The position numbers and the translations under genes were made by a program. From Trichodesmium erythraeum IMS101 (GTDB lineage: Bacteria > Cyanobacteriota > Cyanobacteriia > Cyanobacteriales > Microcoleaceae): 32,000 nt of DNA. Below the pieces are notes generated by a model. The model saw nothing but the letters and a program-made list of their open reading frames with translations. It made no database searches and was not told the DNA's origin. Positions 4,171-32,000 of the stretch are shown piece after piece (the first letter of the stretch is position 1; each line of letters starts with the position of its first letter). The stretch is from contig NC_008312.1 of the NCBI RefSeq assembly GCF_000014265.1, positions 2,430,001-2,462,000 of the forward strand, in the 5' to 3' direction.

Positions 4171-4225
4171 AATTTTTGAGCAATTTTTGAGCAATTTTTG
4201 AGCAATTTTTGAGCAATTTTTGAGC
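4171..4225. repeat. 11-bp tandem repeat (aatttttgagc) x5 immediately upstream of the 3568..4164 gene
   Basis: Five perfect head-to-tail copies are read directly in the sequence. Each copy contains a T5/A5 tract, so the tracts are phased at 11 bp. Confidence 0.9.
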
Positions 4226-4412
4226 AAATAAAGAACTTTAAAATATCATACCACTTTATAGCTAATTATCCTTGAAATCCAAGTAAAATCAATCAACGCC
4301 TTTGGTTAACTGAAAAAATGACTGACCAAATGGAGCAGCCTATAGGGCGACGCAGTAGAAGCAGGAAGTAAATCTGATAACATTACTAATTATAACATTT
4401 TATATCGGTTTT

Positions 4413-6308
4413 ATGAAGCAGAAAAAATTGTTAGACTCTAAATCTGATCAAACAAATGGTACAGTAGAAACCTTAACTGATAAGATAGAAGCTGTATCAA
4501 TTCAATCTGAGACAGCTTTGTTCAAGTCGAAAGGCAAAAAAAAGAAATTGACCTGGGTTGGTCTCCTAGTAGTTATTTTAGCAACAACTTTTGGCAGCCT
4601 AAAATTTCTCATCTATCGAAAGACTTCTCTCAAGCGAACCTCAGAAAGTTCTCTAGCGAATATCCTCTCTGTTCAAGCTACCCCCATAAAATTAGTCAAC
4701 TCCTACTCAGTTTCCCAAAGTTATACAGGAGTTGTAGAAGCCAAAAGAACAAGTGAACTTGGTTTTGAGCAATCAGGTTTACTTAAATTCATATATGTAG
4801 AAGAGGGTAAAAAAGTAGGCAAAGGAGAAGCGATCGCTCAACTGGATACCAGTCAAACCCAAGCCCAAAAGTCAGTATTAATAGCTCAGAAAGAAAGAGC
4901 GATCGCCACCCTCAAAGAACTGCAAACAGGACCCAGAGTAGAAGTCATTGCAGCCACCCGAGCATCCCTAGCTCAAGAAAAAGCAAAATTACAAGAATTG
5001 CAAACAGGACCCAGGGTAGAAGTAATTGCAGCCACCCGTGCATCCCTTACTCAAGAACAAGCCAAATTACAAGAACTACAAACAGGACCCAGAGTAGAAG
5101 TAATTGCAGCCACCCGTGCATCCCTTACTCAAGAACAAGCCAAATTACAAGAACTGCAAACGGGAACCCGCACCGAAGATATTGAAGCAGCTCGTTCAGT
5201 AGTTCTAGACTTAGAGGAACAAGTAGAATTAGCTCAACTTCGAGAAAAAAGACGTGAAGAACTTTATAAACAGGGAGCAATTTCTCAAGAACAACTAGAT
5301 GTTGCTTCTACTGAGACCGATACTCTCAATGCCAGACTGAAAAGAGGGCGGAGTGAACTAGAAAAATTACAAACAGGAACTCGCCGCGAACAAATAGAAG
5401 CTCAAAAAGCTAGAGTTCGTCAAGTGCAAAGTCAATTAGATGAACTGATAGCCGGAACTCGCCGCGAACAAATAGAAGTTCAAAAAGCTAGAGTTCGTCA
5501 AGTGCAAAGTCAGTTAGATGAACTGATAGCCGGAACTCGCCGCGAACAAATAGAAGCTCAAAAAGCTAGAGTCCGTCAAGTGCAAAGTCAATTAGATGAA
5601 CTTATTGCCGGAACTCGCTCCGAACAAATAGAAGCTCAAAAAGCAGAAGTTAAACGTTTCGAGGCACAAATTTCTGAAATTGATGTTGTTCTGAGAAAAA
5701 GTATTCTCTATGCGCCTTTTACTGGCACTATTTCTGTTCGCCATTTAGACGAGGGAGTTGTCGTTAATGCAACTCAAGCTGTTGTGCGTTTAGTCGAGGA
5801 TGGTGAAAGGAAAGTTCGGGTTGGGGTGCCGCCGACTCAAGCTAGTCGTTTGAGAATAGGTAGTTTGGAGGAAGTGAGGATAGCACAGAAAACTTTAAGT
5901 GCACAAGTGCTGTCAATTTTACCAGAGGTAGATTCTATGACTCGGACTCAAAGTGTAATTTTGGCACTACCTCAAGCTATAGCTCCAGGTACTATTGTCA
6001 AGTTAGAACTTAATCAAATTGAAACAGTGACAGGATATTGGTTGCCGACTTCTGCTTTGGTTTGGGGAGAGCGGGGGTTGTTGGCTTGTTTTGCTCTTGT
6101 CTCTCCTCAGAAATCAGATTTGGTGATACCTCCCTTAACTTATCAGACTGAAAAACGAATGGTTGAAGTTTTGCATACGGAGGGAGACCGGAGTCTGGTG
6201 CGAGGACTCTTAAAACCAGGAGAATTGGTTGTCACAACTGGAACTAACCAATTAGTTCCTGGTCAGTTAGTTCGCTATAGATTTTTTGGGCAGGAGAAAA
6301 ACCAATAA
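4413..6308 (+). CDS. HlyD-family efflux transporter periplasmic adaptor (membrane fusion protein) with expanded coiled coil
   Basis: 631-aa ORF with an N-terminal TM anchor (LTWVGLLVVILATTFGSLKFLIY). It has a lipoyl-like half (VGKGEAIAQLD ... LYAPFTGTIS). A very long run of GxRxExI-type helical units surrounds a GAISQEQLD hairpin-tip motif, followed by a C-terminal beta-barrel region. An RND pump gene lies downstream. Confidence 0.85.
   Translation: MKQKKLLDSKSDQTNGTVETLTDKIEAVSIQSETALFKSKGKKKKLTWVGLLVVILATTFGSLKFLIYRKTSLKRTSESSLANILSVQATPIKLVNSYSVSQSYTGVVEAKRTSELGFEQSGLLKFIYVEEGKKVGKGEAIAQLDTSQTQAQKSVLIAQKERAIATLKELQTGPRVEVIAATRASLAQEKAKLQELQTGPRVEVIAATRASLTQEQAKLQELQTGPRVEVIAATRASLTQEQAKLQELQTGTRTEDIEAARSVVLDLEEQVELAQLREKRREELYKQGAISQEQLDVASTETDTLNARLKRGRSELEKLQTGTRREQIEAQKARVRQVQSQLDELIAGTRREQIEVQKARVRQVQSQLDELIAGTRREQIEAQKARVRQVQSQLDELIAGTRSEQIEAQKAEVKRFEAQISEIDVVLRKSILYAPFTGTISVRHLDEGVVVNATQAVVRLVEDGERKVRVGVPPTQASRLRIGSLEEVRIAQKTLSAQVLSILPEVDSMTRTQSVILALPQAIAPGTIVKLELNQIETVTGYWLPTSALVWGERGLLACFALVSPQKSDLVIPPLTYQTEKRMVEVLHTEGDRSLVRGLLKPGELVVTTGTNQLVPGQLVRYRFFGQEKNQ
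4923..5156 (+). repeat. in-frame 78-bp (26-codon) tandem repeat x3, plus a diverged 4th unit to about 5234, inside the adaptor gene
   Basis: Units start at 4923, 5001 and 5079. Copies 2 and 3 differ at 2 of 78 nt, and copy 1 differs from copy 3 at about 7 of 78. Each encodes QTGPRVEVIAATRASL(A/T)QE(K/Q)AKLQEL. Confidence 0.9.
5376..5609 (+). repeat. second in-frame 78-bp (26-codon) tandem repeat x3, plus a diverged 4th unit from 5610, inside the adaptor gene
   Basis: Units start at 5376, 5454 and 5532, with 2-4 differences per 78 nt. Each encodes GTRREQIE(A/V)QKARVRQVQSQLDELIA. Confidence 0.9.
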
Positions 6309-6826: not shown

Positions 6827-9800
6827 ATGACTACTTTATTTTATCGAAACTTTCGATTATTAATACTAGCAATACTAATAATTGTAGCCTGGGGAATATC
6901 ATCATGTTTCACATTGCCACGACTAGAAGACCCAGAATTAGTTTCCCGTTTTGCCAGTATCACAACTTTTTGGCCAGGAGCTGATGCCCAACAAGTAGAA
7001 ACATTAATCACAGAGAAAATAGAAGCAAAACTATCTGAAATTGAAGAAATTGAAACCTATGATTCAACTTCTAGGGCGGGAAGTTCAATTATTAATATTG
7101 GACTATTAGAATCAGTTGAAGAAAGAAAAGCTGATACAGCTTGGTTAAGAATTAAAGAGCGATTAAATCAAGCCACAACTCAATTACCTGCTGGTACAAG
7201 TAAACCACGATTAGAGGAAGTTGAAGTTAAAGCTTATGCCATGATTACTGCTTTAACTTGGGAACAAGATACTGAGCCTAATTATGCAATTATCAATCGT
7301 TTATCTAAATTATTAAAAGATAAATTATTAGCATTGCCAGGAACACAAAAAGTTGCCAAATTTGGTATTCCTCAAGAAGAAATATTAGTAGAAATTAATC
7401 CTACTGATTTAGCTAGTCTTGGTCTGACCGCTCAACAATTATCAGCACAAATTCAACAAAGTGATGCCAAAGTTTCATCCGGTAAATTTCGGAGTCAAAA
7501 TAATGATTTACTCCTAGAAGTTGATTCAAATTTAGATTCCCTGAATAGGATTCGGAATATTCCAATTAGCTTTAGTGATAGAGGTCAATTTACTCGACTT
7601 GGTGACATTGCTAAAGTCAGAAAAACAATTGCTGAACCACCAAATGAACTTGCATTAATTAATGGTCATCCTGGTTCTGCTTTAGCTATATTTGTCGAAT
7701 CAGATTATCAAATAGACCTCTGGGCAAAATCAGCAGAATCAGCCATAGAAAAATTTCGCAAAGAACTAGGTATTGGTCTAAAAATTGAGATAATTTTTAA
7801 TCAAAGTAATTATATTCAAACTCGCTTAAAAAGTATGATTTGGAATCTATTAATGAGTGGCATACTGGTATTTTTGATGACAGTATTTTTAATGGGTTGG
7901 AAATCTGCAATTGTTGTTGGTTTGGTATTGCCTTTGTCAATTTGCATGGTTTTAGGGATGATGAGATTTCTCAATGTTCCTCTACATCAAATGTCAATAA
8001 CTGGATTAATTGTAGCTCTAGGATTATTAGTTGATGTGACAATTATTATTGTTGATCAAATTAGTAAAAGTATGGTTTCTGGATTAAAAGCTGAAACTGC
8101 TATTACTAAAGTAATTAATCATTTATTTCTGCCATTAACAGCATCAACTTTAACTACAGCTCTAGGGTTTTTATCAATGCTTTTAATCCCTGGTGAGCCA
8201 GGAGAATTTCTTGGTGGTCTTGGCATTAGTGTGATTTTATCTGTTATTTCTTCATTATTATTATCCCTGACTATAGGTTCTGGCTTAATAGGCAAACTAT
8301 ATCATATTTATTATCATCATAATAATTCCCAGAATACTCAACAAAATTTTTGGCAAACCGGATTTACAAATTCCTCTTTAACGAAACTTTACCAAGTTAG
8401 TCTACGAAGTATATTTAGCAATCCTTGGTTAGGAATATTATTAGGTTTAATTTTACCAATTACTGGTTTAATTCAAGTTAGGAATCTCCCTGAACAATTT
8501 TTTACTCCAGCATCCAGAAACCAGCTTCAAATAGAATTAGAATTACCTGCTTTAACCTCTATTGAAAAAACAAAAAATACGGCTATAAAAGTCAGAAACT
8601 TAATCTTAAAGCATCCAGAAATTCAGGAATTGCAATGGTTTGTAGGACGTAGTTCCCCTCGATATTACTACAACTTAAGAGCAACTAAACAGCCAGACTC
8701 CAATTATGCTCAAGGATTTTTACAATTAAATTCAATTGCTAACTCAGAATTAGTTAACAAACTCCAAGGCGAAGTTGATACTGCATTCCCTGGAGCTCAA
8801 GTCTTGATTCGACAATTAGAACAGGGGCCTCCCTTTGATGCACCAGTAGCAATCAGAATTTATGGTCCTAACTTAAAGCGTCTACAAGAATTAGGAGAAC
8901 AAGCCAGAAGCCTTTTAGCTCAAGTCCCTAAAGTCACTCACACCCGGGACACTTTAAGCGAAATTCGACCCCAACTACAACTACAACTAAATGAAGAAGA
9001 AGTTCGTTTAGCCCAATTAGATCATGCTAATCTTTCACAGCAGTTAGAGAGCTTACTGGAAGGGAATTTAGGAGGATCAATTATTGAAGATACTGAAGAA
9101 CTACCAGTGCGGGTGCGAGTATCGAATGCTCAACGGGGAGACATTAGCCAAATTACATCCTTAGACTTACAACCATTAGGTTCGAGTCTAAATCAAAATC
9201 GATTTAGTTCAACTGATACAATACCCCTGTCAGCTTTAGCAAAAGTAGAATTAAAGCCAGAATTTTCAGTTATTAGAAGAAGTAACGGCAGACGGGTAAA
9301 TTTAATTCAAGGTTTTATTGCTGCTGGGGTTTTACCTTCCGAGGTTCTCAAAGGTTGGCAACAAAGGTTAAATGATTCAAATTTTGAGTTACCATCCGGG
9401 TATTGGTTGGAAATTGCTGGAGAGTCAGAGAAACTAGGTGAGGCTAAAGCAGTTTTGCTTGCTACAGTGCCTCTTATATTTTTATTAGCAGTTTCAGTTT
9501 TGGTCTTATCCTTAAATTCTTTCCGAGCAACTGCCATTATTGGAATAGTTGCTATTTCTGCCATTGGTTTAGGATTTTTTAGTTTATGGTTATTTGGGTA
9601 TCCCTTGAGTTTTATGAGTCTGGTCGGTACATTTGGTTTAGTGGGAATTGCTATTAATGATTCAGTAGTAGTTTTGGCTGCTATCCTCCAAGACCGGGAA
9701 GCATGCACTGGTAACCGTCGAGCTACCCGTCAAGTTGTCATGGGTTCCACTCGTCATGTAGTTGCCACAACTTTAACTACAATGATCGGGTTTGTTCCTT

Positions 9801-17381: not shown

Positions 17382-17475
17382 GATTCGGACCAGCGCGATT
17401 ACAACACCTAAACCTTGTCAGGACCGGAAGGTAGCAGCAACACGGGATGCTTGTAGTAGGCGTTGACTCCGGGTC
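17382..17475 (+). ncRNA. ffs: signal recognition particle RNA (4.5S/SRP RNA, small bacterial type)
   Basis: It contains GUCAGGACCGGAAGGUAGCAGC. This matches the universally conserved domain IV motif GUCAGGUCCGGAAGGAAGCAGC at 20 of 22 positions. The 5' GAUUCGGA pairs with the 3' UCCGGGUC to form an 8-bp closing helix. The length of about 94 nt is typical. Confidence 0.8.
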
Positions 17476-17514
17476 ACCCAACTAAAAGGAGCTCATAAGA
17501 TAGGATACATATAT

Positions 17515-19956: not shown

Positions 19957-19980
19957 ACTTTTGACTTTTGACTTTTGACT
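19957..19980. repeat. heptamer tandem repeat (acttttg) x3.4, about 37 bp upstream of the folC start
   Basis: acttttgacttttgacttttgact is read directly. It creates three TTGACT hexamers at 7-bp spacing. Confidence 0.85.
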
Positions 19981-20016
19981 TCCAAGAGCTAGATAGCTAA
20001 TTGCTATAAAAAAACT

Positions 20017-21279
20017 GTGAATTCTATAGACTCTTTCTTAAAACGCTTTGAACATTTCGGCGTTGAGCTTAGTCTCGAACGCATCTATCAACTTCTAGAT
20101 AATTTAGGCAAGCCTCATCTCCAAGTACCCATAATTCATGTCGCCGGAACAAATGGCAAAGGTTCTGTCTGTGCTTACCTATCATCCATCCTCAAAGCAG
20201 CAGGATATAAAGTCGGACGTTACACTTCACCCCACCTGGTTGACTGGACAGAACGTATTTGCCTCAACGAAGAAAAAATTCCCTCAAGTATATTAGAACA
20301 ATTATTGGTAGAAGTAGAAACAGCTATTCAACCAGAACAACCTTCACCTACTCAGTTTGAGGTTATTACTGCCGCAGCTTGGTTATATTTTGCTCAACAA
20401 CAAGTAGATGTGGCAGTTGTAGAAGTAGGTTTGGGGGGCAGACTAGATGCTACTAATGTTTGTCACCAACCAATGGTAACTGTCATTACTTCTATTAGTT
20501 GGGAACATTGGCAAAAATTAGGTCCGACTTTGAGTCATATTGCTGGGGAAAAGGCGGGTATTCTTAAACCAAGATGTCCTGCTATAGTTGGAGTATTACC
20601 CCCAGAAGCAAAAAAAGTAGTAGAAAAACGTATTACTGATCTAGAGTGTCCTGTTGTTTGGGCAGAGCCTGCTAAATTATTGGCAGAAAGTCAGGAATAT
20701 AACTCATTGCCAGTAGCTACTTATCAAGGTATTGAATATAAGGTGCCATTATTTGGAGATGTACAGTTGATAAATTCAGCGATCGCTATTGCTACAGTTC
20801 AAGTGCTAGAAACACAAGGTTGGGAGATTCCGATCACAGCAATTAAACAAGGAATAGCTGAAACTAAATGGCTTGGACGTTTGCAATGGACTACATGGCA
20901 AAATCGCCAATTATTAATTGATGGGGCCCATAATGCTGCTGCAGCCCAAGTATTGGGACGGTATGTCCGGACACTAAATTATCCATCTATAAGTTGGGTT
21001 ATGGGTATGCTGTCTACGAAGGAACATTCGGAAATTTTTCGGGCACTTCTTAGACCAGGCGATCGCTTGTATTTAGTTCCTGTTCCTGACCATAGTTCGG
21101 CTGATTTGAATCAACTTAGTACCATAGCTCAGGATATATGCACAAAATTAGATTTTTGTCAAGTTTATCCCCATTTAACACCGGCTTTAGAAGAGGCTAT
21201 TACTGATAGTAAAAATTTAATTGTTTTATGTGGTTCTCTATATTTATTGGGTCATTTTATCAAAATGAAAAGTAACTAA
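20017..21279 (+). CDS. folC: bifunctional folylpolyglutamate synthase / dihydrofolate synthase
   Basis: 420-aa ORF with a GTG start. It has the Mur-ligase P-loop HVAGTNGKGSV, TSPHLVDWTERI, and the EVGLGGRLDATN motif. Confidence 0.9.
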   Translation: MNSIDSFLKRFEHFGVELSLERIYQLLDNLGKPHLQVPIIHVAGTNGKGSVCAYLSSILKAAGYKVGRYTSPHLVDWTERICLNEEKIPSSILEQLLVEVETAIQPEQPSPTQFEVITAAAWLYFAQQQVDVAVVEVGLGGRLDATNVCHQPMVTVITSISWEHWQKLGPTLSHIAGEKAGILKPRCPAIVGVLPPEAKKVVEKRITDLECPVVWAEPAKLLAESQEYNSLPVATYQGIEYKVPLFGDVQLINSAIAIATVQVLETQGWEIPITAIKQGIAETKWLGRLQWTTWQNRQLLIDGAHNAAAAQVLGRYVRTLNYPSISWVMGMLSTKEHSEIFRALLRPGDRLYLVPVPDHSSADLNQLSTIAQDICTKLDFCQVYPHLTPALEEAITDSKNLIVLCGSLYLLGHFIKMKSN

Positions 21280-24784: not shown

Positions 24785-25579
24785 ATGGTAGCAACAAATG
24801 AGATAGATATAGACTTAGAAGAACTAGAAGAAGAAGGAGAAGAATTTCAAGTTCCTTTGCTAAATATGTCTGTCAAAGACCCGAGATTTATTGGAGGAAC
24901 TATTGGTATTTTAGGCTTTGGAATAGCAGCTTTCTTAGGATATAGTCAGCTTAAACCAACTATAGAAAAAAATACTGAATTAAGGGCAGAGATAGAAGCA
25001 GCAGAAATCAAAATTAAACAGCAGAAAAAACAAATAGAAGAACGACCAAAGGTAGAGGAGGAAAACAAAAAAGCTGAAAGAAAAAGGGAAGATGTAACCA
25101 GCTTATTTGCTAGTGAAAAAACTATGAAAACTCTACTATATGATGTTAATCAACTTATCGATCAAATTAATGGCGGAATTACAGAGGAAGAAAAACAAGC
25201 AAAAATGACAAAGTTTCAACCAGTTGAGCCAAAAAATGGTAATTATATAGTTAATGATAACTCATTAGGACCACTGGTAAATGGCAAGTTAAAGCGACGA
25301 GAATTCAAAGTAGAATTTGAAGGTAGTTATCCCCAAACAAGAGCATTTATGACTGCTATAGAGAGGATGGAAACATTATTAGTAGTGAAAAACTTAATAA
25401 CTAAACTCAAACAAGGAAATGAGGTTATAGAAGTTGAATGGAGGCAAAATAAATTTGTGCCAGTTAGCAAGCCAGAAAGTCGACTAATATCATCCTTTGA
25501 TATGCATGCTCTATTGGCTTTAAGTGAAAAAGAGTCATTGGGTGTAAAAGGTTCTACAAAACAAGAAGAAAATAAGTAA
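24785..25579 (+). CDS. pilO: type IV pilus assembly protein PilO
   Basis: 264-aa ORF with a single TM helix (IGGTIGILGFGIAAFLGY), a coiled coil and a C-terminal ferredoxin-like region. It sits immediately after pilN (2-bp gap). Confidence 0.7.
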   Translation: MVATNEIDIDLEELEEEGEEFQVPLLNMSVKDPRFIGGTIGILGFGIAAFLGYSQLKPTIEKNTELRAEIEAAEIKIKQQKKQIEERPKVEEENKKAERKREDVTSLFASEKTMKTLLYDVNQLIDQINGGITEEEKQAKMTKFQPVEPKNGNYIVNDNSLGPLVNGKLKRREFKVEFEGSYPQTRAFMTAIERMETLLVVKNLITKLKQGNEVIEVEWRQNKFVPVSKPESRLISSFDMHALLALSEKESLGVKGSTKQEENK

Positions 25580-26307
25580 CATCATCTGCCAAATAAATGT
25601 TATTTTTTCAAAGAAATTAGGTTTAAAATTTCATCTTTATTTGACCTTATTTTTTCCCTAAAGCTAGGGTGAAAGTAGATAGTGAGTAGGAAGATAGAGA
25701 GGAGAAAAGATGGGGAGTATTTTCCCGTTTCTAAATGCGATCGCAGAAGGTTAAAAGGTTACTTTACCTAACTTTGAGCATAATAATTCTCTTGTCTGCA
25801 AGGATTAAAGTCTGTTAAGAAAGTATCTATTTCTAATCATTATTGATTATGCTTTTTTCAAATCTCAAGCATCATAGTATGTTTGACAGAAAATAAAATA
25901 ATTCATTATTTTGTCGGGAAAATTAAACTTGAATTCAATCACAAAAATGGCTAGATTTTTTTCATAAAAAAATATTTTATCTGTAATAAATTATGACTTT
26001 TATCAACAGCATACGCCTGAAAGATTATTCGATTTATGAGGGTTACAATATTTATAAGTTATTGCTAAGTTATTGCTAAATTTAAAGGATAATAAGTTAC
26101 TTTAAATACTGTAATTATATTGAAATATGATTTTCAAAAAAACTAAAAATCATAGAAAGATTTGTAAAATATTTAAAATATTTTCAAGATTATTGTCATC
26201 TATATTATGTAAATTAGTCAATTTATTAATTATTTTACAAAGACTTTGTAATATTATTTTAGGTTATTAATATATTGACAAATTACGAGAATTTAAGTTA
26301 CACATAA

Positions 26308-27428
26308 TATATAGCAATCCTAAGTAGGTTGCGGCAAAATTTCATACTGAAAAAGTTTTGGGAAATTGAATATTTGACCATCCGCAAAAAACTTAAATAG
26401 CCACTTAACTACTTTAAAAGAACTGCAAAGATGATAAAAAGTAATACTGAAATTTTTGGTTTGTAACCAAATATCTTCAACAGGATTTTGCTCCGGAGCA
26501 TTGGGAGCAAATCTTGTACAATTTATCAACAATTCTTCTTCTGATAAGTATTGATTAATTGTCATTAAATATTCTCGAAATTCTTGAGAGTTATGGTAAG
26601 TTGCCCCATCCCAAAATATTGCCAATTTGTTGCCCGGTCTTTGCTTCTGCAAATATTTAATAAATTCAATAGTATTTTTAGTATTTCCACTCTCATATTC
26701 TTGCACAAGAAATTCCTTGGTTTTATAGTCTAAAGCTCCATAATAAGTCTGTCTTTCTTTTTCATTTTTAATTGCAATTTCTATTCTTTCATCTGTTTTT
26801 CCCCAAGCATAACCTAATATGTCTCCCCATAGAAGATGACATTCATCAATCATAAACACTGTAAGCTTTCCAGTTTCTATTTCTGGTTGCCATTTAGCTA
26901 AAAATTCCTCTATTTCTTTTCTTTTAACTTCTACTAATTCATCATTTTTAGCAGGATTCTTTTTTTGAGTTTTTTTCCAACTTATGCCCGCTTCTTTAAA
27001 CAAGTTATAGTAACTTTGATTAGACTCAAAAACCACATCATATTGCTCCTGTAAGTAGTTTTTTAAATCTGATAACCTAAGATAATCTTGTGCTCTCAAC
27101 CACTCAATTGTTTTCTCTTTTTCGACCGTTTTTAAGTAACCTTGTCTCCCTTGATACTGAAGCCTTAAACTTTCTACACCATGAAATAATGCTTGGTTTT
27201 TCCATTCACTAATAAAACTGTGAGAAACATTTAATAATTCTTTGACTTCATGGTAGGATTTTCCTGACAAGGTCATTTTTACGGCCAAGGCCCTTTTAAT
27301 TTCTTTAGACTCTTTTGTTTGATTAATAAAATCATTTAGTTTATCTATAATATTCATTTTTTGTCTTTTTCTTAGATCTGTTATTCTTACTATTATATCT
27401 GTTGCGACCAATATGGGATTGCTATATA
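26308..27428 (-). mobile_element. IS630-family insertion sequence (about 1.12 kb) with imperfect terminal inverted repeats and TA at both ends
   Basis: tatatagcaatcc at 26308-26320 is the exact inverse of ggattgctatata at 27416-27428. Partial complementarity extends about 17 nt further inward. The size, the single transposase ORF and the terminal TA fit IS630/Tc1-mariner elements. Confidence 0.8.
26320..27357 (-). CDS. IS630-family DDE transposase
   Basis: The ORF-track ORF starts at a TTG inside the terminal repeat (27411); the ATG at 27357 (MNIIDKL) is more likely. It has an N-terminal HTH region and the DDE triad context FMIDECHL, IFWDGATYHNS and APEQNPVEDIW. The last corresponds to the canonical IS630 SPELNPIE motif. 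The ORF appears intact. Confidence 0.85.
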   Translation of the reverse strand: MNIIDKLNDFINQTKESKEIKRALAVKMTLSGKSYHEVKELLNVSHSFISEWKNQALFHGVESLRLQYQGRQGYLKTVEKEKTIEWLRAQDYLRLSDLKNYLQEQYDVVFESNQSYYNLFKEAGISWKKTQKKNPAKNDELVEVKRKEIEEFLAKWQPEIETGKLTVFMIDECHLLWGDILGYAWGKTDERIEIAIKNEKERQTYYGALDYKTKEFLVQEYESGNTKNTIEFIKYLQKQRPGNKLAIFWDGATYHNSQEFREYLMTINQYLSEEELLINCTRFAPNAPEQNPVEDIWLQTKNFSITFYHLCSSFKVVKWLFKFFADGQIFNFPKLFQYEILPQPT

Positions 27429-27454
27429 GATATATTCTTATAAAAGACTAGATT

Positions 27455-27664
27455 TTGCCGAAAAAAAATAGTAAGCATTACCAGGTAAAATTACTCTAAA
27501 TTAATGAAAATATAATCCTAATACTATTACTGAGAAAAGCTAAAGTTTTTATCATCAATTTGCCGAAAAAAAATAGTAAGCATTACCAGGTAAAAGTACT
27601 CTAAATTAATGAAAATATAATCCTAATACTATTACTGAGAAAAGCTAAAGTTTTTATCATCAAA
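27455..27664. repeat. 105-bp direct duplication (x2) abutting the large array
   Basis: ttgccgaaaaaaaatagtaagcattaccaggtaaaa(t/g)tactctaaatt...attactgagaaaagctaaagtttttatcatcaa occurs at 27455 and again at 27560. The last 33 bp are shared with the junction of the 595-bp units. Confidence 0.85.
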
Positions 27665-30611
27665 TAGAACTTTGAGTATTCGAGAGTGGAACAACTTTTG
27701 TTGAGATATTTCTCAAGTATTATCAAACATTTTCCCAAAAGATAATCTTAGATTCAGATGTAATTTATCTACCAAACTTTACTAGAATATGCTGCGTTTT
27801 AGAAATCCCTTAGTCTCGAATTTAAGAAATTACTGATACTGAATAATTTTTATAGTTTAAATATCAGTAAAAAAAAATTTAAGTATGAAACATTACGGCT
27901 CAAATTTACGGCTCAAACAAGTCAGTATGTTTTGAGATTTATTTTCTTATTTATTGACTTAATTTAATCTTACTAATTACTCAATTTTTAGCTAAACTCT
28001 TATATTGAGTTTTTTTATCATTAAACTAGAATTTTTATCAAATTTAAAAACTTATTGATTTTTAGTGGTACTCAGCAGGATATAAAATTAATTTTTGAGA
28101 AATGCGGGTAGTCCTTTGACCTGCATTAGATAACTTAGCATTTATCAAATAATTACAGTTCACAACCAAAATACTTCTAAGTATCAAAAAAGTACAAAGT
28201 CAAACTTGAAATGTCAAAGATCAAGAATTACTGAGAAAAGCTAAAGTTTTTATCATCAAATAGAACTTTGAGTATTCGAGAGTGGAACAACTTTTGTTGA
28301 GATATTTCTCAAGTATTATCAAACATTTTCCCAAAAGATAATCTTAGATTCAGATGTAATTTATCTACCAAACTTTACTAGAATATGCTGCGTTTTAGAA
28401 ATCTCTTAGTCTCGAATTTAAGAAATTCCTGATACTGAATAATTTTTATAGTTTAAATATCAGAAAAAAAAATTTAAGTATGAAACATTACGGCTCAAAT
28501 TTACGGCTCAAACAAGTCAGTATGTTTTGAGATTTATTTTCTTATTTATTGACTTAATTTAATCTTACTAATTACTCAATTTTTAGCTAAACTCTTATAT
28601 TGAGTTTTTTTATCATTAAACTAGAATTTTTATCAAATTTAAAAACTTATTGATTTTTAGTGGTACTCAGCAGGATATAAAATTAATTTTTGAGAAATGC
28701 GGGTAGTCCTTTGACCTGTATTAGATAACTTAGCATTTATCAAATAATTACAGTTCACAACCAAAATACTTCTCAGTATCAAAAAAGTACAAAGTCAAAC
28801 TTGAAATGTCAAAGATCAAGAATTACTGAGAAAAGCTAAAGTTTTTATCATCAAATAGAACTTTGAGTATTCGAGAGTGGAAAAACTTTTGTTTAAATAT
28901 TTCTCAAGTATTATCAAACATTTTCCCAAAAGATAATCTTAGATTCAGATGTAATTTATCTACCAAACTTTACTAGAATATGCTGCGTTTTAGAAATCTC
29001 TTAGTCTCGAATTTAAGAAATTCCTGATACTGAATAATTTTTATAGTTTAAATATCAGAAAAAAAAATTTAAGTATGAAACATTACGGCTCAAATTTACG
29101 GCTCAAACAAGTCAGTATGTTTTGAGATTTATTTTCTTATTTATTGACTTAATTTAATCTTACTAATTACTCAATTTTTAGCTAAACTCTTATATTGAGT
29201 TTTTTTGATCATTAAACTAGAATTTTTATCAAATTTAAAAACTTATTGATTTTTAGTGGTACTCAGCAGGATATAAAATTAATTTTTGAGAAATGCGGGT
29301 AGTCCTTTGACCTGTATTAGATAACTTAGCATTTATCAAATAATTACAGTTCACAACCAAAATACTTCTAAGTATCAAAAAAGTACAAAGTCAAACTTGA
29401 AATGTCAAAGATCAAGAATTACTGAGAAAAGCTAAAGTTTTTATCATCAAATAGAACTTTGAGTATTCGAGAGTGGAAAAACTTTTGTTTAAATATTTCT
29501 CAAGTATTATCAAACATTTTCCCAAAAGATAATCTTAGATTCAGATGTAATTTATCTACCAAACTTTACTAGAATATGCTGCGTTTTAGAAATCCCTTAG
29601 TCTCGAATTTAAGAAATTCCTGATACTCAATAATTTTTATAGTTTAAATATCAGAAAAAAAAATTTAAGTATGAAACATTACGGCTCAAATTTACGGCTC
29701 AAACAAGTCAGTATGTTTTGAGATTTATTTTCTTATTTATTGACTTAATTTAATCTTACTAATTACTCAATTTTTAGCTAAACTCTTATATTGAGTTTTT
29801 TTATCATTAAACTAGAATTTTTATCAAATTTAAAAACTTATTGATTTTTAGTGGTACTCAGCAGGATATAAAATTAATTTTTGAGAAATGCGGGTAGTCC
29901 TTTGACCTGCATTAGATAACTTAGCATTTATCAAATAATTACAGTTCACAACCAAAATACTTCTAAGTATCAAAAAAGTACAAAGTCAAACTTGAAATGT
30001 CAAAGACAAAGAATTACTGAGAAAAGCTAAAGTTTTTATCATCAAATAGAACTTTGAGTATTCGAGAGTGGAACAACTTTTGTTTAAATATTTCTCAAGT
30101 ATTATCAAACATTTTCCCAAAAGATAATCTTAGATTCAGATGTAATTTATCTACCAAACTTTACTAGAATAGGCTGCGTTTTAGAAATCCCTTAGTCTCG
30201 AATTTAAGAAATTCCTGATACTGAATAATTTTTATAGTTTAAATATCAGTAAAAAAATATTTAAGTATGAAACATTACGGCTCAAATTTACGGCTCAAAC
30301 AAGTCAGTATGTTTTGAGATTTATTTTCTTATTTATTGACTTAGTTTAATCTTACTAATTACTCAATTTTTAGCTAAACTCTTATATTGAGTTTTTTTTA
30401 TCATAAACTAGAATTTTTATCAAATTTAAAAACTTATTGATTTTTAGTGGTACTCAGCAGGATATAAAATTAATTTTTGAGAAATGCGGGTAGTCCTTTG
30501 ACCTGTATTAGATAACTTAGCATTTATCAAATAATTACAGTTCACAACCAAAATACTTCTAAGTATCAAAAAAGTACAAAGTCAAACTTGAAATGTCAAA
30601 GATAAAGAATT
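27631..30611. repeat. tandem array of a 595/596-bp unit x5.0 (about 2.98 kb), near-identical copies, non-coding
   Basis: The landmark attactgagaaaagctaaag recurs at 27631, 28227, 28822, 29418 and 30013, and homology ends near 30611. Copies differ by only a handful of SNPs or 1-nt indels. The ORF track shows no ORF of 60 aa or more on either strand between 27411 and 31403. Confidence 0.95.
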
Positions 30612-30960
30612 GATGTATAATCAAACATCAAGTTATAAAATAGCTGTAAAAAAATCAGATTAAAAAAGAGATAAGAGGAGATAGGGATACTAATGCTTAT
30701 TGTTTTACCTTCTTCTCGTATTACGTATCCGATGCTATGAATACTCAATTTGTGCCCTTGATGAATCAACCTATTAAAATCTGAATTTGGCCAAACTCAA
30801 AATTATTTTTTTTAGTTAATAGTTAGGCGATCGCTATTTAGGTGTTAAATACTAGGTTTTAGGTTTTAGTTCTAAAAATTAATAAGTTGATAATATCTTA
30901 CTACCAAATCTATTGATTTTGGCCCGTTAAATCTCGATAACTTTTTACTTCAATCATTTT

Positions 30961-31025
30961 CTATCTTTGCTATCTACCACTAAACCACCAAAGCTACTAA
31001 CTATCTTTGCTATCTACCACTAAAC
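30961..31025. repeat. 25-bp direct repeat (ctatctttgctatctaccactaaac) x2 with a 15-bp spacer
   Basis: Copies at 30961-30985 and 31001-31025 are read directly. Confidence 0.85.
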
Positions 31026-31564
31026 AACTGAACCAGTAAGCTTAATAAAACTTAACATATTTGGCAGTACTAATGGTTAGTTAGCAAAACAATAACACTT
31101 AGTAAAACTATGTATTGAAAAAGAATAACTAAAAAATTCTCTGATAGCAGTCGAGGCTTTAAACCCAATTTTTCAGTAAATAATACTATTTCGGAAAAAC
31201 TCTTCTATCTGTACTATTTATTGGGGGTAAAGATATTGCATAGATCATCGAGTTGGGTTGTGGGAGTAGGGAAATTGGATAAAGACATCCGGACAACTTA
31301 ATAATAATTAATATACTCGGGGGAGTGCTAGCTACTAAAAAAGTTGTTTGGTCTGTATTAATTACTTAATAATTACAAAGTAACCTGACTGTAGCATTAT
31401 TTTCAGGAATTGATGTAACAAAGTTTATTTTTACCCAGGATGACTAACATTGAAAAAAAGAAAAACTTAAAGTATGGTAGCCTGAAAGCTGTATAAAAAT
31501 CCCTATACTCTAGCCCAAGACTAACAGATGAATTAATAAAAAAGCTCAGTGTGGAGTCAAGAAA

Positions 31565-32000
31565 GTGAAACAGCAAATTCAATTTAGTGGTGGACTTTTG
31601 ACTGGAGTTGCGGCTATAATTATGGCCCAGACCCCAGCTTTTGCAGTAACCAAAATAACCCAAGTTAAGTTAAATTCAGTAGATGGAGGAATTAATATCC
31701 TCTTATCTACTAGTAATGGCGATCGCCCGGAAGTATTCTCAGTCAACAGAGATAACTCTTTTGTGGCAGACATAATTAATACTCAACTAACCCTACCCCA
31801 GGGCAATAAATTTCGGAAAGATAATCCAGCTCCTGGTATAGAATATGTAGAAGTAATACAGGTGGATGCTAATAGCGTGCGGGTAGTTATCCGAGGTACA
31901 GACAGTCCTCCTAGAGGTAGAATTATCCAAGGAGCAGGCCAAGGAATTATTCTTAGTGTGGCTGCTAGCTCAGGAGAAATAGCTCAAAGACCTCAACCTA
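31565..32000 (+). CDS. pilQ: type IV pilus secretin PilQ, N-terminal part (signal peptide plus AMIN domain); runs off the window end
   Basis: The frame is open from GTG 31565 to the window edge, with GGAG 8 nt upstream; the ORF track misses it because there is no stop. The translation is VKQQIQFSGGLLTGVAAIIMAQTPAFA/VTKITQVKLNSVDGGINILLSTSNGDRPEVFSVNRDNSFVADIINTQL...VEVIQVDANSVRVVIRG. This is a signal peptide followed by the AMIN-domain pattern usual at the start of cyanobacterial PilQ. Confidence 0.7.
   Translation, partial: MKQQIQFSGGLLTGVAAIIMAQTPAFAVTKITQVKLNSVDGGINILLSTSNGDRPEVFSVNRDNSFVADIINTQLTLPQGNKFRKDNPAPGIEYVEVIQVDANSVRVVIRGTDSPPRGRIIQGAGQGIILSVAASSGEIAQRPQP

Follow-up and report, generated by a model that had tools for sequence, protein, structure and literature searches.

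What is an array of five almost identical, non-coding repeats of about 595 bp doing between pilO and pilQ of Trichodesmium erythraeum IMS101, and from which DNA was it built? The array sits in the 5985-bp gap between these two genes, inside a 32,000-nt stretch of the IMS101 genome that was analysed as a whole (hereafter the window). The initial annotation of this DNA had offered two explanations, an array of structured non-coding RNA (ncRNA) units, which it preferred, and a recombination-prone satellite. The preferred idea received no support from Rfam, from folding z-scores, from covariation or from promoter and terminator scans. The satellite alternative fared better: the unit is native and single-copy in relatives, its copy number appears to differ between populations, and smaller tandem duplications of 13 and 105 nt are nested at the same locus. 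We therefore consider it probable that the array represents a 595-bp piece of the native pilO-pilQ spacer that was tandemly amplified in the T. erythraeum lineage, and hence a large satellite of variable copy number.

A repeat search combined with a MAFFT alignment of the five units placed the array at 27631-30608 (2978 bp, 5.0 copies). Its head-to-tail units start 595/596 bp apart: unit 1 spans 27631..28226 (596 bp), unit 2 28227..28821 (595 bp), unit 3 28822..29417 (596 bp), unit 4 29418..30012 (595 bp) and unit 5, which runs into the downstream single-copy spacer, 30013..30608 (596 bp). With five copies in register at this spacing, the original description of five near-identical 595-bp tandem units holds. 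The span first given, 27631-30611, had the correct start but ended 3 nt too late, since the additional 3 nt are an ATT common to the flank and the unit start. Units are 98.2-99.2% identical to one another; 16 of the 597 alignment columns are variable and any two units differ in 5-11 columns. The array is absent from the output of Tandem Repeats Finder (TRF) because the longest period in that search was 500. As had been noted before, it is not CRISPR-like, since the whole 595-bp period repeats at 98-99% identity and there are no unique spacers.

The absence of coding potential was likewise upheld: no open reading frame (ORF) of 60 aa or more occurs within 27412-31402 on either strand. Stop-free stretches in the array reach 54 aa at most, and reading frames change from unit to unit owing to an indel in an A-run. 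The open stretches of the array gave no Pfam signal, exact look-ups of three small array ORFs returned no record, and combined blastn and tblastx comparisons found nothing similar to the unit in the rest of the window and no match to pilO, pilQ or other genes. A coding or pseudogene origin of the unit was therefore rejected on the grounds that it matches no gene in the window, that its frames shift and that it lacks a Pfam signal.

Comparison with other genomes indicates where the unit comes from. Homologous loci were found by exact look-ups of PilO and PilQ variants, and their spacers were mapped to the elements of the window. In the sister genus, the Okeania hirsuta pilO-pilQ spacer measures 510 bp and lacks the unit; only a 68-nt block near pilQ is kept. 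A second Trichodesmium clade, recognised by a 267-aa PilO, was represented by metagenome-assembled genomes (MAGs; St19_bin2 and others) with ten independent contigs from several assemblers. In contigs of this clade that span the locus, the spacer is 2367-2381 bp long and holds one 105-bp element (described below), one unit and no insertion sequence (IS); the contigs that were checked contain no N gaps. In L005 and L008-L014 the one unit lies between the same flanks and in the same orientation as in IMS101, and positions 8461-10000 of L005 match unit 5 plus the downstream spacer (30013-31564) at 98.3%. Six gap-free T. erythraeum-type contigs (L020, L022, L028, L029, L037 and L042) also have one unit.

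Tandem units occur outside IMS101 as well. Three Tara scaffolds (L027, L030 and L033) contain a sequenced junction at which unit positions 545-596 run directly into unit positions 1-596, together with 100-N gaps within the repeats. In a contig of the ALOHA_ZT_67 MAG (L018), unit positions 1-237 are followed by 100 Ns and then by unit positions 83-596, so that at least two units must be present there. Copy number thus varies from five in IMS101 over at least two in L027, L030, L033 and L018 to one in the gap-free contigs, where wild copy numbers are to be taken as minimum or apparent values because short-read assemblers can collapse tandem repeats. Since the unit is single and syntenic in relatives, and tandem in some wild contigs without an IS, native Trichodesmium spacer DNA has been multiplied in part of the T. 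erythraeum lineage, independently of the IS. The simplest reading of these contigs is that the one copy seen in them represents a real single copy. Beyond these loci, the unit had no match in viral contigs, phage records or plasmid records, and two exact patterns gave 0 matches in JGI metagenome contigs. An exact 37-mer of the unit gave 0 matches in species-representative genomes, where the PilO locus was likewise unconfirmed, so that this result has little bearing on other genomic copies.

The junctions of the array suggest how the amplification began. On the left, ...AATACT is followed by ATTACTG; at the internal junctions ...CAAGA is followed by ATTACTG; and on the right ...AAAGA is followed by ATTGATG. 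All four internal junctions are identical in form (...AAAGA, then TC or CA, then AAGA, followed by ATTACTGAG). At the novel junction, the flank and the unit start share only the ATT at 30609..30611, which is common to the unit start (ATTACTG) and the post-array sequence (ATTGATG), and this argues for a founding join at a 3-nt microhomology. At the four alignment columns that distinguish the clades (453, 504, 514 and 540), 5/5 units show the T. erythraeum-clade base, which dates the amplification after the clade split. The earlier proposal of recent amplification or ongoing homogenisation needs to be qualified, however, as the units do not look freshly copied. Their 5-11 mutual differences resemble the 3-13 differences found between wild alleles of the T. 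erythraeum clade, and several of the intra-array variants (at unit positions 62/73/75, 160, 211, 246-248 and 592-595) are identical to wild alleles and distributed as a mosaic among the units.

We propose that the first duplication arose by illegitimate joining at ATT, through microhomology or slippage. With two 595-bp copies in place, unequal homologous recombination, together with gene conversion, could act between chromosome copies; such exchanges would have altered the number of units and reassorted their variants. A passage in PMC7292380 that cites Sargent et al. 2016 reports IMS101 to be highly polyploid, and the genus Trichodesmium is repeat-rich (PMC9950141).

Smaller duplications surround and interrupt the units. 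Within every unit, TRF found a 13-nt TTACGGCTCAAAT repeated 1.9 times, located at 27893..27917 in unit 1 and repeated at 28488, 29083, 29679 and 30275. This element had been described as a 12-nt duplication (ttacggctcaaa x2); its presence in every unit was correct, but the period is really 13 nt and the duplication is polymorphic. As it is missing from L008, L010, L012 and L013, we regard it as a slippage product. Overlapping the left edge of the array is a 105-bp tandem duplication at 27454..27663 (27454-27558 and 27559-27663; TRF 2.0 copies, 99%), which the initial annotation did not mention. The final 33 nt of this duplication also form the first 33 nt of unit 1, and the left breakpoint of the 595-bp duplication falls within the 105-bp element. 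The element is single in the second clade and in the six gap-free T. erythraeum-type contigs, is present twice in IMS101, and occurs in two or three copies in L018, L035, L036 and L044 (about three in L044). Spacer B, downstream of the array, has a 28-nt direct repeat (CTATCTTTGCTATCTACCACTAAAC...) at 30961-31028, with a spacing of 40 nt, which is another small duplication in the pilO-pilQ gap. A perfect tandem duplication of 80 nt (x1.9; L007 9689-9842) occurs independently in the Okeania hirsuta spacer and is unrelated in sequence to the Trichodesmium unit. Taken together, the 13-nt, 105-bp and 28-nt duplications and the Okeania 80-nt x1.9 duplication suggest that the spacer is prone to slippage. 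The spacer region around the array has a G+C content of 25-27%, and slippage in this A+T-rich DNA may also have given rise to the 13-nt and 105-nt duplications.

Could the repeats instead be of foreign origin, or not be real? An IS630-family insertion occupies about 26312..27424 on the minus strand (transposase ORF 26320-27411; Pfam DDE_3, HTH_33 and HTH_23), leaving 220 bp between the transposase and the array downstream. Since transposases are also found upstream of the published tandem array of IMS101 (PMC4143802), the unit might be a fragment or the cargo of a mobile element, or other foreign DNA, that was multiplied by the neighbouring IS630. Against this, the IS630 element has terminal inverted repeats of its own (TAGCAATCC...) and duplicated a TA target; the corresponding empty site (ACACATAATATATAGATATATTC) is clean and intact in wild contigs such as L020. 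No wild contig crossing the site has the insertion, which is confined to IMS101-type contigs. As far as these contigs indicate, it is a strain- or lineage-specific, separate TA-targeted event and not part of the repeat; it is a later insertion, unrelated to the amplification. The unit itself has no terminal inverted repeats and no target duplication at its ends, just the 3-nt microhomology, and there is no other copy in the window, so that the suspicion of a known mobile-element fragment was not borne out and the unit does not qualify as an IS or a miniature inverted-repeat element (MITE). Its sole similarity to IS630 is one 46-nt, 80% A+T-rich match. In the second clade it is found once, as part of the syntenic spacer, and phages, plasmids and viral contigs contain no match to it. 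IS-driven amplification was rejected because wild scaffolds have tandem units without an IS, and a mobile or foreign origin of the unit as such is very improbable. Even less credit can be given to the idea that the count of five reflects a misassembly of the reference genome. Assemblies are prone to errors at tandem repeats, and the short-read IMS101-type contigs L001, L003 and L004 do end before the array. However, these three contigs end about 20 bp inside IS630, so that the break falls in a multicopy element and not in the array; moreover, each unit has its own combination of single-nucleotide polymorphisms and indels, and unit-unit junctions were found independently in the three Tara scaffolds. 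An artefact is therefore exceedingly unlikely.

A more substantial rival holds that each unit is an independent ncRNA transcription unit whose amplification raised the RNA dosage, which would make this the second such array in IMS101. There is a precedent, as each repeat of the published array has its own transcription start site (TSS) and a transcript of ~260 nt (PMC4143802). With 1,621 intergenic TSS mapped in IMS101 (PMC4143802), a 595-bp non-coding stretch also has a fair prior chance of containing one. Each unit has one sigma-70-like match on the plus strand (TTGAGT-16/17-TAGAAT), with a weak hairpin and a T-run directly upstream, and the conservation of the unit between clades matches that of pilO. 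The unit has a single G+C-rich hairpin (AAUGCGGGU-9 nt-ACCUGUAUU; plus strand, 28696..28722 in unit 2; -9.1 kcal/mol, z = -1.96), in which one basal pair is seen as G-U, G-C and A-U; this is a hint only, as there is no other informative stem variation.

The structural searches point the other way. Rfam 15 gave no match in 27300-31400 even at E<=1, the sole gathering-score match in the window being a signal recognition particle (SRP) RNA at 17382-17478. Folding of the whole unit gave z = -0.71 on the plus strand and +0.13 on the minus strand, and no 100-nt sliding window across the unit plus junction reached z < -2 on either strand. An RNAalifold analysis of 15 sequences (5 units and 10 wild ones) scored 0/159 pairs as compensatory, with an unfavourable covariation term of +0.88, in a comparison whose power is low because the sequences diverged by only 1-3%; the Rfam and RNAalifold check proposed with the structured-RNA idea thus came out negative. 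The most stable local element, a double hairpin at 28275-28315 (z = -2.69), loses two G-C pairs in its second stem: this stem, TTGAGA/TCTCAA, is replaced by TTTAAA/TCTCAA in most wild sequences as well as in units 3-5, and since the common allele breaks it, the stem is not maintained. Signals for transcription were not enriched, with 12 promoter-like sites against 24.9 +/- 5.3 in shuffles (that is, fewer) and 0 hits in the terminator scan. The terminator-like hairpin of the initial annotation, ACTCAAT-18 nt-ATTGAGT plus a T-run, is present in each unit (plus strand, 27979..28016 in unit 1), but it is A+T-rich and folds weakly (-4.7 kcal/mol, z = -1.64 for the unit-2 copy). Similarly, the TTGAC(T/C) hexamers put forward as -35 boxes do exist, at three per unit (two on the plus and one on the minus strand), but were rejected in this role because the promoter scan pairs none of them with a -10 at a suitable distance. 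As far as could be judged from an estimated genome coordinate of the window, Table 1 of PMC4143802 does not list the array among its top-ranked transcripts either. On balance, independent ncRNA units seem rather unlikely.

Amplification of native spacer DNA therefore remains the reading that we favour, and several points have to be set against it. The recombination mechanism is inferred from the anatomy of the junctions and from general knowledge. A single copy in short-read contigs is not proof of a single copy, since assemblers may collapse repeats. In particular, the haplotypes CGG, ATA and CTA at unit positions 62/73/75 (27692, 27703 and 27705 in unit 1) all occur both in the IMS101 array and in 'single-copy' wild contigs, some of which could consequently be collapsed arrays; the shared haplotypes suggest either that alleles recombined while the array expanded or that the assemblers collapsed wild arrays. 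With respect to conservation, the identity between clades is 97.9-98.5% for the unit, 98.1-98.4% for the pilO coding sequence, 96-97% for spacer A and 99-99.9% for spacer B. Because the unit is conserved like pilO and above spacer A, some sequence constraint is possible, although its position between spacers A and B means that conservation does not single it out. Finally, the other tandem array of IMS101 gives the most abundant primary transcript (PMC4143802), and an absence of function can therefore not simply be assumed.

From the sequence, we see no evidence for a dedicated function of the repeat. Its likely effects are a longer pilO-pilQ gap and a multiplication of the weak signals that the unit contains. 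Should the unit carry an active promoter, IMS101 would make five near-identical copies of an unannotated ncRNA from this gap, and tandem amplification of intergenic ncRNA genes would be a recurrent means by which the polyploid, spacer-rich genome of Trichodesmium tunes RNA dosage, with copy numbers that differ among wild populations. We regard this scenario as unlikely.

The genes around the gap are readily recognised. Upstream, pilO (24785..25579, plus strand; exact match to ABG50886.1/WP_011611262.1) is the last gene of pilM-pilN-pilO, and two ORFs further upstream have PilM_2 and PilN Pfam matches. It is followed by spacer segment A (25580..26311), which is single-copy and conserved in all Trichodesmium contigs, with 99-100% identity in T. 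erythraeum-type contigs (BLAST). For the second clade, the 96-97% given above is a MAFFT value with gaps excluded and corresponds to 94-95% in BLAST with gaps counted. Spacer segment B (30609..31564), also single-copy, separates the array from pilQ, of which the 5' part (31565..32000, plus strand; Pfam AMIN, E = 3.7e-14) runs off the window; homologous pilQ loci extend into STN, Secretin_N and Secretin domains. The 68-nt block that is kept in Okeania lies at 31454-31521, directly upstream of pilQ, contains AAAGCTGT and CCCTATACTCTAGCC, and is 75% identical to positions 9577-9644 of the Okeania hirsuta contig L007. With its CCCTATACTCTAGCC, this block is likely the pilQ-proximal promoter region or a candidate 5' leader. 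Such a conserved promoter or leader directly upstream of pilQ would imply that this gene is probably transcribed on its own, independently of pilMNO.

Elsewhere in the window, the SRP RNA already mentioned (bacterial small type, RF00169, 59.2 bits, plus strand) lies between two small ORFs. Two 78-bp tandem repeats with 92-95% matches, at 4915-5165 (3.2 copies) and 5376-5644 (3.4 copies), fall inside a 631-aa ORF at 4413-6308, where they form in-frame 26-residue protein repeats, and directly upstream of this ORF is a perfect AATTTTTGAGC x5.2 tandem repeat (4171-4227). Another perfect repeat, ACTTTTG x3.6 at 19957-19981 with three TTGACT hexamers, lies directly upstream of folC (20017-21279), whose product is identical to ABG50882.1.

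Non-coding DNA makes up about 40% of the Trichodesmium genome, and it is an open question how this fraction grows. The pilO-pilQ locus shows the growth of a spacer in steps, from ~0.5 kb in Okeania to ~2.4 kb in Trichodesmium and ~6 kb in IMS101. In IMS101, nested tandem duplications (13, 105 and 595 bp) and the insertion of an IS led to the present size, and intermediate states exist in natural populations. In practical terms, the array is a convenient marker for strain typing of T. erythraeum by polymerase chain reaction or long reads. If its units were transcribed, T. erythraeum would offer a second example of ncRNA genes multiplied in this way.

How does the array compare with known repetitive systems? 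With CRISPR arrays it has only the periodicity in common, as there are neither unique spacers nor a short palindromic repeat. It resembles a minisatellite or macrosatellite (variable-number tandem repeat) in its head-to-tail non-coding units, its copy-number polymorphism and the nested 13-nt and 105-nt duplications in an A+T-rich region, but bacterial repeats of this class typically have units of tens of bp and the pilO-pilQ unit is far longer. In bacterial tandem amplification, as worked out in the genetics of Salmonella and E. coli, an initial join at short homology or microhomology is followed by RecA-dependent unequal crossing-over. The identical internal junctions, the 3-nt microhomology, the single-copy parent in relatives, the variable copy number and the mosaic variants all fit this scheme. 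Whereas classical amplifications usually span genes, are selected for dosage and otherwise collapse quickly, the pilO-pilQ array consists of 595-bp non-coding units, and the 1-2% divergence of these units implies that it has persisted for some time.

The closest parallel is the published array of IMS101 itself, which comprises 7 tandem repeats of 736-973 bp over more than 6 kb at 103000-110200 (Pfreundt et al. 2014, PMC4143802). Its ~260-nt RNAs, each from a TSS in the respective repeat, together account for 44.7% of TSS-associated primary reads, and its authors read it as the product of duplication events (PMC4143802). The main text of that paper does not mention the pilO-pilQ array, and a literature search for the pilQ locus tag or a description of the array found nothing specific. 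The entry 'ncr3647195, in between repeats' in the same paper was considered as the pilO-pilQ locus and not confirmed; a rough estimate based on the order of protein accessions places the window near 2.8 Mb, and we judge that it is probably not. The two arrays share the genome, non-coding units of 0.6-1 kb in 5-7 copies that are >96% identical, a large intergenic gap and transposase genes upstream. They differ in that each published repeat includes a partial copy (the 3' part) of the neighbouring gene Tery_0080, whereas blastn, tblastx and Pfam revealed no gene fragment in the pilO-pilQ unit, and in that the published array has a mapped TSS per repeat while the present one is known here from sequence alone. 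Since the published repeat was reported to be without similarity elsewhere in the genome, the two arrays are not sequence relatives, by description and not by direct alignment. The pilO-pilQ array is thus best read as one more long tandem amplification of non-coding DNA in a genome known to be rich in repeats, an ordinary structural polymorphism and not a new type of element.

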